From positions 1 through 52,118 of IMG/VR virus record IMGVR_UViG_3300043672_000030: 52,118 nt of DNA; one strand, written 5' to 3'. The position numbers and the translations under genes are program-made. Position 1 is the first letter of the stretch. Every line of letters starts with the position of its first letter. Source of the stretch: a virus. Below the pieces are notes generated by a model. It did not search any database. It was given only the letters and a program-made list of their open reading frames with translations, and was not told the origin of the DNA. Positions 4,495-31,916 of the stretch are shown here, in pieces.

Positions 4495-7400
4495 TGGTCG
4501 CGTCAATCAACTTCGATGTGTTCTGGCGTGACCATGGGGCCCGCCGGGGGGCGGGTGAACTGGGGGGGGCGTTGGATGAGTCGGCGCAACGTGCCGACAA
4601 GATGAAAGACGCCGTGAAGGTTGGGGCGCTCGCGGCGGGGGTAGCGATCGCGGCGATGGGTAAGCAGTCCATCGACGTTGCTAACGACATCGCGGAATCC
4701 ACGTCGAAGATCAGTGTCGTTTTCGGTCAATCCTCGAAATCGGTCATGGATTTCGCGGACACGTCGGCGGAGTCGCTGGGCATTTCGAAGCGGTCGGCGT
4801 TGGAGGCGGCCGGAACGTTCGGGAACCTGCTGGTGTCGTTGAAACTTCCGCAGGCGGAAGCCGCGAAAATGTCCACCAAAATGATCACGCTTGCGGCGGA
4901 TATGGCGTCGTTCAACAACGCTTCCCCGGAGGAAGCGTTGGACGCGATCCGGTCGGGGCTGATGGGGGAAACCGAGCCGTTGCAGCGGTTCGGGGTGAAC
5001 ATGAACGACGCCACCCTGCGAACTCAGGCGTTGAAGATGGGGTTGGTGAAGTCGGTCAAGGAAGGTCTGAACCCGGCCGTCAAAGCGCAGGCCGCGTACG
5101 GGCTGATGCTCGCTCAAACCGGAACCGCCCAAGGAGATTTCGCTCGCACGTCCGGGGGGCTCGCGAACCAGACCCGGATAGCGAAGGCTCGGTTTGAGGA
5201 CCTGGAGGGCGAGTTGGGGGCGGCTCTGCTGCCGACGGTGAACAAGCTGATGCAGGGGTTGACGGGGCTGTTAGGGGTGCTTGCCGAAAACCAGAAAGTC
5301 ATCGTCCCCCTGGTTTTGGGTGTGACGGGGCTCGGTGCGGCGATCTGGACGATCAACAAAGCGGCTGCTGCTGCTGCCGCCGCCCACGCCGCGTGGACGG
5401 TGGTGATGGGGGCAAACACCGCTGCCGCTGGGCTGAACACGGTGGCGTTGATTCGGATGGTGTCGGTGGCTAAGTCAGCCGTCGCCACGTTCGGTGTGTT
5501 GGGTGTGGCGGTCGGAGCGGTGTGGGCGGATGAGAAACTCCGCCAGTGGTCAACGGCGTCGGTCAGTTTGAACGCCCTGTCGGAGGGCATGAAAGATGTT
5601 GCCGGTTCAGGGAAACTGTCGGCTGCTGAGTTGGAGTTGTTCGCGAACAAGGCCAAGTTCTTCGGCGACGGGGTGGGTACCTCAGCGGAGGCTTTGAAGA
5701 AGTTTGGTTTCCAAGCCCACGATGCCCTGGACCAGGGGTGGGGAGCCCGGATCGCCCGGATCGACGATATGGGTAAGGGGCAAAAGAATTTCGAGGAACG
5801 CACTCGGTCGTTGGATGGGGCGTTGTCGTCGATGGTGAGGGACGGGAACGTTGATAAAGCTGCCGCGCAGATGAAGTTGTATGAGGACGCGGCGGTGAAG
5901 GCGGGGGTGCCGTTGGCGTCTTTGCGGCACATGTTCCCGCAGTACGCGTCGGCGGTGAAGGCGTCGATTCCGCCGGTGATGGAAGCGGAAGCGGCCGTGA
6001 TCAAACACAACACGGCGGTGAAAAAGAACGTGGAGGCGCTGGCGGCCGACGCGGCTGCGCTGTTGAAGACGCGGGGGTCGGAAAACTCGTATGAGGCGGC
6101 CGTGGACGACGCCACGAAAGCAATCAAGGACAACGGGAAAACCCTGGACAAGCACACCGAGAAAGGACGCGCGAACCGGACCGCCCTGGATCAGATCGCA
6201 TCGTCCACCCTCGCTTGGCGGGACGCGGCGAAGGAGGCAGGCGCATCGCAGAAACGCCAAACCCAGATCACCGAACAGGGGCGGGCGGAACTGGTGAAGA
6301 TGGGCCAACGGTTTGGCCTGTCAAAGAAAGCCGCCCGCGAGTACGCGCGGGAAGTGTTGGGGATCCCTAAGCGGGTGTCCTCCGTTATCAGCTTGTCCCT
6401 GAAAAACGGGATCCCCAAAACGTTGTACGGGGTGCGGGTTGGCGGTGGGTCCGGATCCACTCGGGGTGGCATCACTTTCGGGATGGCCACGGGTGGGCCG
6501 GTGCGCGGGGGGTACGGGGGCCACGACGACATCCCAGCGATGCTGACGCGGGATGAGCATGTGTGGACGAAACAGGAAGTCGCTGCCGCCGGGGGGCATG
6601 GGGCGATGAAGGTGATGCGGCGGGGTGTCCTCGGTTTGGCTGAGGGGGGCCCGGTGTTCGCCGCGCAACTCGGGCGCGGCGAAGCACAGATCGCCGCCGG
6701 GACGTCGTCGCGGATCGCGGACCGCCTGTTGAAGATCGCCCAAGGGGCCATCGGTTTCAACCCGTCCCTGAACGGGGCGTTGAACTTCGCTCGCGCCCAG
6801 GTCGGGAAACCGTACATCTGGGGGGGTGTGGGGCCACGCGGGTACGACTGTTCGGGTGCGATGAGTGCCCTGTTGAACGTGGTCCAAGGACGCAACCCCT
6901 ACAGTCGCCGGTTCGCCACGGGTAACTTCCCGGCCGCCGGGTTCATCCCGGGCCCCGGATCGTTCATGATCGGATCCCGGCGCGGCAACCCGGGGCATAT
7001 GGCCGGAACGATCAACGGCGTCAACGTGGAGTCGTCCGGGTCCGTCGGGTTCCACATGGGCAAGTCCGCTCGCGGAGCCCGCAACAGCATGTTCACCGGC
7101 CTCTACCATTTGCGGGGGTACGCGAAGGGGGGCGCGGTCGAGGGGGACGCCCCGTTTGATCTGCTGGACCGGGGTGGGGATGACTACCTGGGGGACGCGA
7201 TCCGCCGGGTGTTCCTCGCGGACCGGGGTGGGATCCTCCGCACCGGGCGGGCGGCGGTGAACCTCTCCGGCCAGGACGAACGGGTCCTGACGGGGGCACA
7301 GACGAGACAGTTTGACCGGCTGGTCCGGGTGCATGAGCGGGGCGGCCCCGGCCCCGCAGCCACCAACACAGCGGTCGACTATGACCGGTTGGGGGTGTCC

Positions 7401-30956: not shown

Positions 30957-31559
30957 ATGAGCAAGCCCAAGGAAGTCGCCTACAACCGGGCCCACGGCCT
31001 CCCCGGCATGTACCCCGGCCGCCGGTTCACCGGCCAAGACGGAATCCTTACCGCCGCCGACAAGGAAGGCATCTACGGCACCCCCCGCGATCTGGATCAG
31101 TCCGACTACGAAGCGTCCGGTCGTGACGCCGAACAGGACGCCGAACAGCAGTCCTACAACCAGGGCGAGTTCGACTCCACCCACAACGAAATCGACGTCG
31201 CCCGACTCGCAACCGAACAGGCATACCGGGAAGGCGTCGCCTCCACCCTCACCGACCAAACCCCCCAAGAACCGGCCGCGATCGCCCGAAGGAGCTACTT
31301 CCCCGGTATCCCTAGCCCCGACGCCCCCACCCCCGCCCACGTCAGCCTCCAGGAGGTTTTAGCCCCGTACTACCGCACCCCCGAACAGGTCACCGCTGAC
31401 ACCGCCCGGGACGCCGTCGCCGCCCACGTCGCCCGGTTCGGTCCGGCCAGCGGCCGGGCGTTCGCGTTCGGGTACCTCTCCCAAGAGATCCTCACCTCCA
31501 CCACCACCACCGAAGCCCGAACCATCCACACCGGGCTAGAACAGGGACTCCGCCGATAG
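30957..31559 (+). CDS. Hypothetical protein
   Basis: 200 aa. ATG follows CCCCGAAGGGA. Confidence 0.5.
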   Translation: MSKPKEVAYNRAHGLPGMYPGRRFTGQDGILTAADKEGIYGTPRDLDQSDYEASGRDAEQDAEQQSYNQGEFDSTHNEIDVARLATEQAYREGVASTLTDQTPQEPAAIARRSYFPGIPSPDAPTPAHVSLQEVLAPYYRTPEQVTADTARDAVAAHVARFGPASGRAFAFGYLSQEILTSTTTTEARTIHTGLEQGLRR

Positions 31560-31568
31560 TCTCGACCG

Positions 31569-31590
31569 CCCCCCCGCCCCGGCGGGGGGG
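31569..31590 (+). terminator. GC hairpin (C7GCC / GGCG7)
   Basis: The arms 31569-31576 and 31583-31590 are complementary. Confidence 0.4.
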
Positions 31591-31596
31591 CCTTAC

Positions 31597-31697
31597 GCCC
31601 GGTTAGCTCAATGGTGGAGCGCCGTTTGCCGACGGCGGTGTTGGTGTCCTGGCGGGCCACTACCAACACTCACCAGGTTCGATTCCTGGACCGGGCA
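31597..31697 (+). tRNA. tRNA-like gene, non-canonical (aberrant anticodon loop, 34-nt extra arm)
   Basis: - Acceptor: gcccggt/accgggc, 7 bp, perfect.
- D arm: gctc-aatggtg-gagc.
- T arm: ccagg-ttcgatt-cctgg.
- Anticodon hairpin: gccgt-ttgccg-acggc, a 6-nt loop, or CCG with G33.
- Extra arm: 8-bp stem with a 14-nt loop. Confidence 0.5.
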
Positions 31698-31718
31698 CGC
31701 AACCCCCCACTCCCGAAG

Positions 31719-31916
31719 GTGTGTGTGCGATCTGCGCGAATCCACCCCAAGCGGAACCGACTGCATGTCGACCATGATCACGAGACAGGAAAGGTGCGAG
31801 GCATTCTGTGTGGCCCCTGTAACGGTGCCCTGCACTATCTCGAACGGAAAGACTGGCTAGACAACGCCAATCAGTACCTCGACCGCTTCCCGAAGGAGCA
31901 AAGACACCATGAGTAA
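31719..31916 (+). CDS. Endonuclease VII (core frame). The upstream CAIC knuckle is in another frame, so this may be a pseudogene or a recoded gene.
   Basis: The core motif is LHVDHDHETGKVRGILCGPCN. Frame 2 from GTG 31721 encodes VCAICANPP, which would join in frame if one C of CCCC (31745-31748) were skipped. Confidence 0.6.
   Translation: MCVRSARIHPKRNRLHVDHDHETGKVRGILCGPCNGALHYLERKDWLDNANQYLDRFPKEQRHHE

Follow-up and report, generated by a model that had tools for sequence, protein, structure and literature searches.

A phage tRNA-like element with two hairpins in its lower half, a candidate processing signal between genes of one operon

In mitochondrial tRNA punctuation, in the t-elements of plant mitochondria and in the MALAT1 mascRNA (RF01684), tRNA-shaped modules with a reduced or absent anticodon domain lie within longer transcripts and recruit RNase P and RNase Z to set the ends of messenger RNAs (mRNAs). 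Here we describe a tRNA-like element at positions 31597-31697 (plus strand) of the IMG/VR virus record IMGVR_UViG_3300043672_000030, whose 52,118 nucleotides (nt) were analysed as a whole and are called the window below, together with analogous elements from other phages. The phage elements have in common with these described systems the tRNA-shaped module and the reduced or absent anticodon domain, and probably also the location within a longer transcript. They differ in that the described systems are eukaryotic or organellar and demonstrably processed, whereas the phage elements are predicted substrates with a consensus of their own, namely an A-C-G trailer, a leader with a ribosome-binding site (RBS) and, in the larger members, an upstream hairpin. 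One element from a related contig (L055 3535-3608) has mascRNA-menRNA as its best Rfam match, at 31.6 bits, which is below the family threshold of 42.5.

Several other groups of RNAs bear comparison with the element. Species 1 and 2 of T4 (rnaC and rnaD), C4 of P1/P7 and CI of P4 are non-decoding small phage RNAs with tRNA-like ends that are matured by RNase P; their sequences and architectures are different from those described here, the T4 species are encoded within a tRNA cluster, and the P1 and P4 species are antisense or immunity RNAs. Murine gammaherpesvirus 68 makes viral tRNA-like RNAs that are not aminoacylated, and tRNase Z frees the hairpin RNAs that neighbour them. That virus is eukaryotic and uses RNA polymerase III, and its hairpins stand outside the tRNA-like body, whereas those of the element stand inside it. 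With canonical and class II tRNAs the element shares the five-arm cloverleaf, a 7-bp acceptor stem, a 4-bp D stem, a 5-bp T stem, the elbow residues and a covariance-model score over the threshold, and it differs from them in the absence of a 7-nt loop with U33, in an extra arm of 34 nt (the variable arms of Leu, Ser and Tyr tRNAs measure roughly 13-23 nt) and in its rejection by default ARAGORN. The tRNA-like domain of tmRNA resembles it in that an acceptor stem and T arm flank a large insert unlike tRNA. Nevertheless, with a length of only 100 nt, no tag reading frame, C-G rather than the alanine pair G3-U70 at position 3-70 and a negative result in the tmRNA mode of ARAGORN, we rejected an assignment to tmRNA. 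YrlA and the Y RNAs of mycobacteriophages (PMC4201824) likewise have a tRNA-mimicking domain with equivalents of a D arm and a T arm, are encoded by actinobacteriophages and are substrates of tRNA enzymes, but YrlA ends in a Ro60-binding stem and its gene lies beside Ro60/TROVE. The element ends in an acceptor stem, and a search of 35 window open reading frames (ORFs; the small ones in part) found no TROVE domain, so we did not retain this identity either.

The element occupies an intergenic position on the coding strand, and the local order is a 200-aa ORF (stop 31559), a GC hairpin, the element, an RBS, an endonuclease VII gene and a DUF932 gene at 31909. Its parts, in window coordinates, are as follows.

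31568-31591, plus strand: upstream hairpin of 10 bp, all G-C, with loop CCCG and without a U tract; it starts 9 nt past the upstream stop codon (31557-31559) and ends 5 nt before the element
31597-31603, plus strand: 5' strand of the acceptor stem, GCCCGGU, forming 7 Watson-Crick pairs with ACCGGGC at 31690-31696
31604-31605, plus strand: U8 and A9, with high posterior probability in the RF00005 alignment
31606-31620, plus strand: D arm, GCUC-AAUGGUG-GAGC, likewise with high posterior probability
31621-31636, plus strand: hairpin 1, at the position of the anticodon arm, GCCGU-UUGCCG-ACGGC, with a stem of 5-6 bp and a loop of 4-6 nt
31637-31670, plus strand: hairpin 2, at the position of the variable arm, 34 nt, with a 10-bp stem GGUGUUGGUG/UACCAACACU that includes 2 terminal G-U pairs, and a 14-nt loop
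31673-31689, plus strand: T arm, CCAGG-UUCGAUU-CCUGG, with G53-C61, U54, U55, C56 and A58 present
31690-31699, plus strand: 3' strand of the acceptor stem, ACCGGGC, followed by the discriminator A (31697) and the trailer CG; CCA is not encoded

The 16 canonical pairs of the acceptor, D and T stems are all intact, as are both extra hairpins, and the residues that make the tertiary contacts of the elbow (U8, A14, G18 and G19 of the D loop, U54, U55, C56, A58 and the pair G53-C61) were all found. The upper half is canonical in having a 12-bp coaxial helix of acceptor and T arm and an elbow of D loop and T loop. The lower half is a pair of hairpins that cannot present a normal anticodon: the minimum-free-energy (MFE) fold favours hairpin 1 as a 6-bp stem with a 4-nt loop, and the alternative pairing CCGUU-UGCCGAC-GGCGG contains two G-U pairs, G33 and a CCG 'anticodon'. 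The loop of hairpin 2 can form an optional apical helix of 4 bp (GUCC-UGGC-GGGC), and a CA dinucleotide separates this hairpin from the T arm. The whole folds as a five-arm cloverleaf with an MFE of -52 kcal/mol (z = -4.6), and 0/200 shuffled sequences folded equally well; the tRNA-like shape is beyond a chance match. A first-pass annotation made from the sequence alone had described perfect acceptor, D and T arms, an aberrant anticodon hairpin (5 bp with a 6-nt loop, or a G-U-containing stem with loop UGCCGAC and G33) and a 34-nt extra arm with a 14-nt loop. Each of these structures was recovered where that annotation had placed it, and the stem of the extra arm proved to extend to the 10 bp given above.

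The same annotation had proposed runs of covariance models and ARAGORN, and these gave different pictures. In a permissive scan of 401 nt the element scored 41.1 bits against RF00005 (E = 1.8e-7), over the gathering score of 29; in the alignment hairpin 2 becomes a 32-nt insertion in the variable region, and hairpin 1 is aligned poorly, with low posterior probabilities. A gathering-mode Rfam scan of the whole window with fast filters found the other two tRNAs and did not report the element, and default ARAGORN on the window found these two tRNAs at 33298-33375 and 39014-39086 and did not call it. ARAGORN returned calls only when introns were allowed or after 12-40 nt had been deleted in silico from the extra arm, with tRNA-Arg(CCG) accounting for 277/666 of the tRNA calls on such deletion variants. 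The call under the intron option, a tRNA-Asp(GUC) with a 17-nt insert at 31/32, was rejected as an artefact, because the insert site is non-canonical, position 37 would be C and many alternative deletions also give calls. The mitochondrial-type mode of ARAGORN was negative for the element, and no other Rfam family gave it a meaningful score. In sum, what separates the element from a standard tRNA is the absence of a 5-bp stem closing a 7-nt loop that has U33 and, at position 37, a purine, together with a size and variable region that standard tRNA finders such as default ARAGORN do not accept. The earlier suggestion of a tRNA-Gly(GCC)-type arm that has lost about 3 nt found no support, as the discriminator is A, the ARAGORN calls point to Arg(CCG) and the only genome match of the 5' half is to a tRNA-Thr.

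Elements of related design recur in other phage contigs, and it is their comparison that carries our interpretation. We used a strict scanner consisting of a regular expression for the acceptor stem and T arm, with dinucleotide shuffles as the null. It returned 2 sites in the window against 0.1 expected, and 1-4 elements per locus against 0.00-0.10 expected. Pattern scans of IMG/VR and of one metagenome yielded analogues and no orthologue of the element, and three unrelated contigs so obtained (L081, L215 and L225) share its five-arm layout with hairpins of unrelated sequence.

Window, 31597-31697, plus strand: 100 nt; RF00005 41.1 bits; hairpin 1 of 5 bp with a 6-nt loop; hairpin 2 of 10 bp with a 14-nt loop
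L081, 1080-1178: 98 nt; 45.5 bits; hairpin 1 of 5 bp with a 5-nt loop; hairpin 2 of 7 bp with a 14-nt loop
L215, 3609-3701: 92 nt; 47.1 bits; hairpin 1 of 7 bp with a 5-nt loop, or a 7-nt loop with G33; hairpin 2 of 8 bp with a 7-nt loop
L225, 315-206: 109 nt; 50.3 bits; hairpin 1 of 9 bp with a 16-nt loop; hairpin 2 of 8 bp with an 8-nt loop

In each of these three contigs a strong hairpin ends 4-7 nt upstream of the element (that of L215 has a U tract), and the A-C-G end is followed by an RBS and a start codon 20-35 nt downstream. Two of them are situated in replication and recombination modules, with an SNF2 helicase and a PD-(D/E)XK nuclease in L215 and AAA_24 and DUF669 in L225.

A second group comes from relatives of the window itself. 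Homologues of the DUF932 protein (67-75% identity) led to five related contigs, in which a homologue of the 132-aa gene of the window lies directly or almost directly 5' of DUF932. In four relatives the slot just 3' of DUF932 holds a strong GC hairpin followed by a 7-bp acceptor stem and a 5-bp T arm around a body, by which we mean the stretch between the 5' strand of the acceptor and the T arm. The T loop of these elements is UUCGAGU or UUCGACC, an anticodon arm is missing from the body, and the trailer (A/G)CGCAA leads into an RBS leader. The equivalent of this slot in the window is occupied by the tRNA at 33298, with a hairpin before it and ACGCA after it.

L050, 5167-5279: 113 nt, body of 82 nt
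L054, 4276-4380: 105 nt, body of 74 nt
L055, 2164-2242: 79 nt, body of 48 nt
L056, 5093-5145: 53 nt, body of 22 nt with a D arm only

The smallest forms came to light in two cultured phages, Mycobacterium phage Cuke and Gordonia phage Cafasso, through matches of the 3' part of the element to intergenic sites that carry no annotation. These are minimal elements of 41-44 nt (minis below), in which a linker of ~11 nt (type ACGGUnnnn) joins a 6-bp acceptor stem to the T arm and ACG forms the trailer; an Rfam scan of the Cuke and Cafasso minis recognised no family. Cafasso (MZ322021, L178) has seven elements on the minus strand at 75.5-80.4 kb, all of them between genes of the operon 143-154. Cuke (MG757156, L179, ~31-38 kb) has at least six between genes 46-58 and probably two more among genes 38-42; two of the Cuke elements are longer forms, of 65 and 95 nt, whose body is a hairpin. 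In both phages the elements are unannotated, share the strand of the genes and occupy successive intergenic gaps of a single operon at very regular distances from the stop and start codons: most begin 8-11 nt past the upstream stop codon and end 43-53 nt before the next start codon.

Features common to all of these elements are the acceptor and T arms, the trailer A73-C74-(G75) and the RBS leader, to which the larger ones add the upstream hairpin. A core alignment of 20 elements shows no variation at G1-C72, G53-C61 and C74; A73 occurs in 18/20 and G75 in 15/20. Double changes occur in 10/12 stem pairs of this alignment; as the 20 elements were chosen for pairing, the covariation figures are partly circular and describe the set without proving the structure. 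Independent support comes from the excess over shuffles, the intergenic placement and the strand.

The first-pass annotation had looked to homologous loci for compensatory changes, and here the closest relatives offered no orthologue. No close relative emerged when 50,697 phage records were searched by Megablast and blastn, the element giving only short matches of its 5' or 3' half. The block of GC hairpin, tRNA-like element and endonuclease VII gene is absent from the junction 5' of DUF932 in the closest relatives, which therefore differ from the window by an insertion or deletion and provide no orthologue for covariation analysis. The upstream 200-aa protein and the endonuclease VII had no homologues in a set of 5.8 billion proteins, and no tRNA-like element lies upstream of the endonuclease VII gene in prophiT46-3. 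The 22-nt 3' half had 0 exact matches in 185,579 species genomes, and the single genome match of the 5' half, to a Sphingobium tRNA-Thr, is uninformative. The relatives also encode an AbiEi_4-domain antitoxin-like protein and Lipoprotein_Ltp proteins of the superinfection-exclusion type (L055 4515-4904; L055 5870-6112; L056 7047-7619).

The interpretation that we favour, tentatively and at somewhat less than an even chance, is that the element is a non-decoding tRNA mimic that would be cut out by RNase P together with RNase Z or RNase E and would thereby punctuate a polycistronic transcript. An acceptor/T-arm minihelix suffices for recognition by RNase P, RNase Z and the CCA-adding enzyme. The analogues keep the acceptor, the T arm, the D arm where there is one and the A-C-G trailer, and they lie between co-oriented genes; their lower half is variable or missing. 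That the half read by RNase P, RNase Z and the CCA-adding enzyme is kept, while the anticodon half varies freely or is absent, fits a mimic that serves as a processing signal. Neither a sigma-70-type promoter nor a U-tract terminator was predicted near the element, which suggests that it probably lies internal to a transcript. Under the proposed mechanism, the element would be transcribed within the rightward early/middle operon and RNase P would cut between C31596 and G31597, so that the upstream mRNA would then terminate in the 10-bp GC hairpin, which would shield its 3' end. A cut by RNase Z or RNase E after A31697 or before C31698 would let the endonuclease VII/DUF932 mRNA begin with an RBS-bearing leader of ~20 nt, and would set free an RNA of ~100 nt, possibly CCA-tailed. 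The stability and translation of the flanking cistrons could in this way be uncoupled, as by tRNAs in mitochondrial transcripts.

Several points weigh against this interpretation. The steps of cleavage, CCA addition and stabilisation are all deduced from general substrate rules; the C before G1 and the very stable hairpin 5 nt upstream may make a suboptimal leader for RNase P; and the covariation statistics carry the circularity noted above. Real tRNAs of these phages share both the genomic context and the trailer, so that a mimic cannot be told from a tRNA by its context alone. The absence of the element from this junction in the closest relatives indicates that it is dispensable or was recently acquired. 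Finally, the 41-nt minis seem sufficient elsewhere, and a full D arm with two stable hairpins exceeds what a cutting signal needs, which hints at a function of the released RNA itself.

This last point leads to the possibility that the excised RNA of ~100 nt acts in trans as a stable tRNA mimic, either by sequestering, as a decoy or sponge, factors that bind tRNAs at the acceptor end or the elbow, or by presenting its two hairpins as a payload on a nuclease-resistant tRNA scaffold; defence toxins of the MenT/AbiEii nucleotidyltransferase, CapRel or HepT type would be candidate targets. The perfect D arm and stable hairpins that set the element apart from the minis are consistent with such a role, as is the occurrence of the five-arm layout in L081, L215 and L225, and a relative encodes an AbiEi_4-domain protein. 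There are also precedents in the tRNA-mimicking Y RNAs of mycobacteriophages (PMC4201824) and in phage tRNAs, whose use in counter-defence is documented (PMC10264068). We nonetheless consider a trans-acting role unlikely, if still a serious competitor: the hairpin sequences differ between analogues, so that no shared ligand-binding motif is visible, there is one copy per genome only, and no toxin or partner gene was identified among the 35 window ORFs scanned. A related proposal of the first-pass annotation, a decoy or resistant variant directed against anticodon-loop nucleases, is disfavoured, because the anticodon loop is precisely the part that is conserved neither in the element nor among its analogues. 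The annotation had further proposed a decaying tRNA, and we regard it as quite unlikely that the element is a functionless, disrupted tRNA gene brought in with a mobile endonuclease VII gene. Such an origin would account for the absence of the whole block from the closest relatives and for the foreign composition and apparent frameshift of the endonuclease VII gene, and free-standing nuclease genes often adjoin phage tRNA genes. Decay should strike stems at random, however, and neither the 16 canonical pairs nor the two extra hairpins show any damage. Three other contigs have arrived at this layout with sequences unrelated to it; moreover, phage genomes lose non-functional DNA fast. Random decay thus fits poorly. 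Of the roles put forward by that annotation, the RNase P/Z punctuation is the one best supported by the comparison of analogues, with the cleavage itself being the part that we infer.

Two further explanations concern decoding and the DNA itself. The element could be an unorthodox tRNA that is charged and used, likeliest a tRNA-Arg(CCG) whose loop would be UGCCGAC, with G33, beside a giant variable arm; the RF00005 score above threshold and the 277/666 ARAGORN calls point in this direction, C35, G36 and A73 suit arginine identity, and the neighbouring tRNA at 33298 likewise has a non-standard loop. A decoding role is very unlikely in our view, given that it replaces the near-universal U33 by G33, needs two G-U pairs where the MFE fold has a 6-bp stem and 4-nt loop, lacks A20 and carries a 34-nt arm longer than class II variable arms. 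In addition, the loops at this position in L081, L215 and L225 have 5 nt, G33 or 16 nt, and CGG is not a rare codon in GC-rich hosts. A signal at the level of DNA, in the form of a recombination boundary, a homing site of endonuclease VII or an attP core derived from a host tRNA, is highly improbable. It would be in line with the position of the elements at mosaic junctions, where DUF932 is conserved while the downstream genes differ, and with a shared GGTTCGAnTCC core that could supply microhomology for recombination. Yet the elements are always oriented with the coding strand, and compensatory changes keep RNA-type stems, G-U pairs included, on one strand only. An attP core copied from a host tRNA in particular was rejected, since the 3' half has no exact match in the species genomes and no integrase was found among the scanned ORFs.

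If the processing-signal interpretation is extended to the analogues, the element would belong to a widespread class of phage 'top-half tRNAs', so far undescribed, through which host RNase P and RNase Z punctuate operons in the manner of mitochondria, a generalisation that we put forward as a possibility and regard as rather doubtful. The class may follow one plan, in which a mimic of the acceptor and T arms encloses a free-form body and is followed by an A-C-G trailer and an RBS leader, with an upstream hairpin added in larger members, and its range may extend from the 41-nt minis between nearly all genes of an operon in Cuke and Cafasso to the five-arm forms of 100 nt. Mimics that were freed and CCA-tailed could additionally be decoys for host toxins that act on the acceptor end of tRNAs. 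Full-text literature searches found no description of these phage elements, and such genes escape standard tRNA finders and filtered Rfam scans. The definition of mRNA ends in bacterial and phage operons has so far been credited mostly to terminators and RNase E; if RNase P and RNase Z do cut these elements, phages of actinobacteria and other hosts would set mRNA ends by tRNA mimicry. This would account for dozens of intergenic repeats that lie unannotated and at regular intervals in the genomes of cultured SEA-PHAGES phages, establish a new class of feature for annotation and provide compact natural tRNA scaffolds and processing signals for mycobacterial engineering. The hypothesis is directly testable, since cultures exist of both Cuke, which grows on M. 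smegmatis mc2155, and Cafasso, which grows on Gordonia rubripertincta.

The window is an apparent whole genome of siphovirus type with 65% G+C, in which Pfam identified portal, capsid, connector, amidase, RecT, HNH and AAA ATPase proteins. Besides the absences already mentioned, the 35 scanned ORFs included no tRNA-processing enzyme. Downstream of the element, and in a second place in the same operon, lie the following features.

31700-31916, plus strand: leader and endonuclease VII gene (Pfam PF02945), with the RBS GAAGG at 31715-31719, 18 bases past the discriminator
33252-33376, plus strand: parallel module consisting of a GC hairpin (33252-33286), a tRNA (33298-33375) and an A-CG trailer, identified by ARAGORN, Rfam and folding

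The first-pass annotation was right in placing the element next to a GC hairpin and before endonuclease VII, and the overlap with the endonuclease VII ORF that it also reported is probably not real. This overlap is only formal, because the ATG at 31611 is part of the D loop and Pfam homology begins at residue 38 (~31722). The endonuclease VII gene itself appears split, with the CAIC zinc motif in the frame of 31724 and VDHDH...CGPCN in the frame of 31719. The two frames can be connected at CCA CCC C AAG (~31741-31750) by a +1 shift, which raises the score from 51.3 bits to 56.7 for the repaired protein. The split may reflect a sequencing error, a pseudogene or a programmed +1 frameshift. The G+C content at third codon positions (GC3) of this gene is 0.65, against ~0.82 in the neighbouring genes.

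An A-C-G ending is common to all three tRNA or tRNA-like genes of the window. The tRNA of the parallel module (33298-33375, plus strand) scores 52.3 bits against RF00005, has an anticodon loop of 8-10 nt, AUAUAGCG, and is labelled 'tRNA-??? (atag)' by ARAGORN; it could decode the rare codons AUA or CUA or a quadruplet. Its loop is resembled by that of the tRNA-like element at L055 3535-3608, GGCG-UAUAG-CGCC. The third gene, a tRNA-Met(CAU) at 39014-39086 (plus strand), has an A1-C72 mismatch and an A-CG trailer, and upstream of it an ORF at ~38700-38999 appears HNH-like by eye (CWRCGKPI...WDLGHDD). Two of the three genes thus adjoin nuclease genes of the HNH or endonuclease VII type.

Some further observations were made in the course of the scans. 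The sequence YCCUGGCGGGCC recurs at hairpin apices in or near tRNA-like elements (window 31647-31658, L050 ~5128-5145 and L033 9347-9360); as a shared apical motif we rejected it as probably due to chance, because CTGGCGGG is abundant in these GC-rich DNAs. In L095/L142, L218, L105 and L103 the acceptor, D and T arms are canonical and the anticodon arm is replaced by one long hairpin, which in L095 is a perfect helix of up to 22 bp. A class-II-like phage tRNA is widespread among IMG/VR and metagenome loci (for example in L187, L190, L196 and L208); its anticodon UAU stands in the loop CUUAUAC/A, its variable arm is long and its CCA is encoded, a combination that is unusual for an Ile-type anticodon. 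Lastly, the 498-kb IMG/VR contig L001 carries a jumbo-phage array of 24 tRNA genes in 11 kb, which includes a call with a 2-nt 'anticodon' and, at 5778-5865, an 88-nt tRNA-like element within the array.

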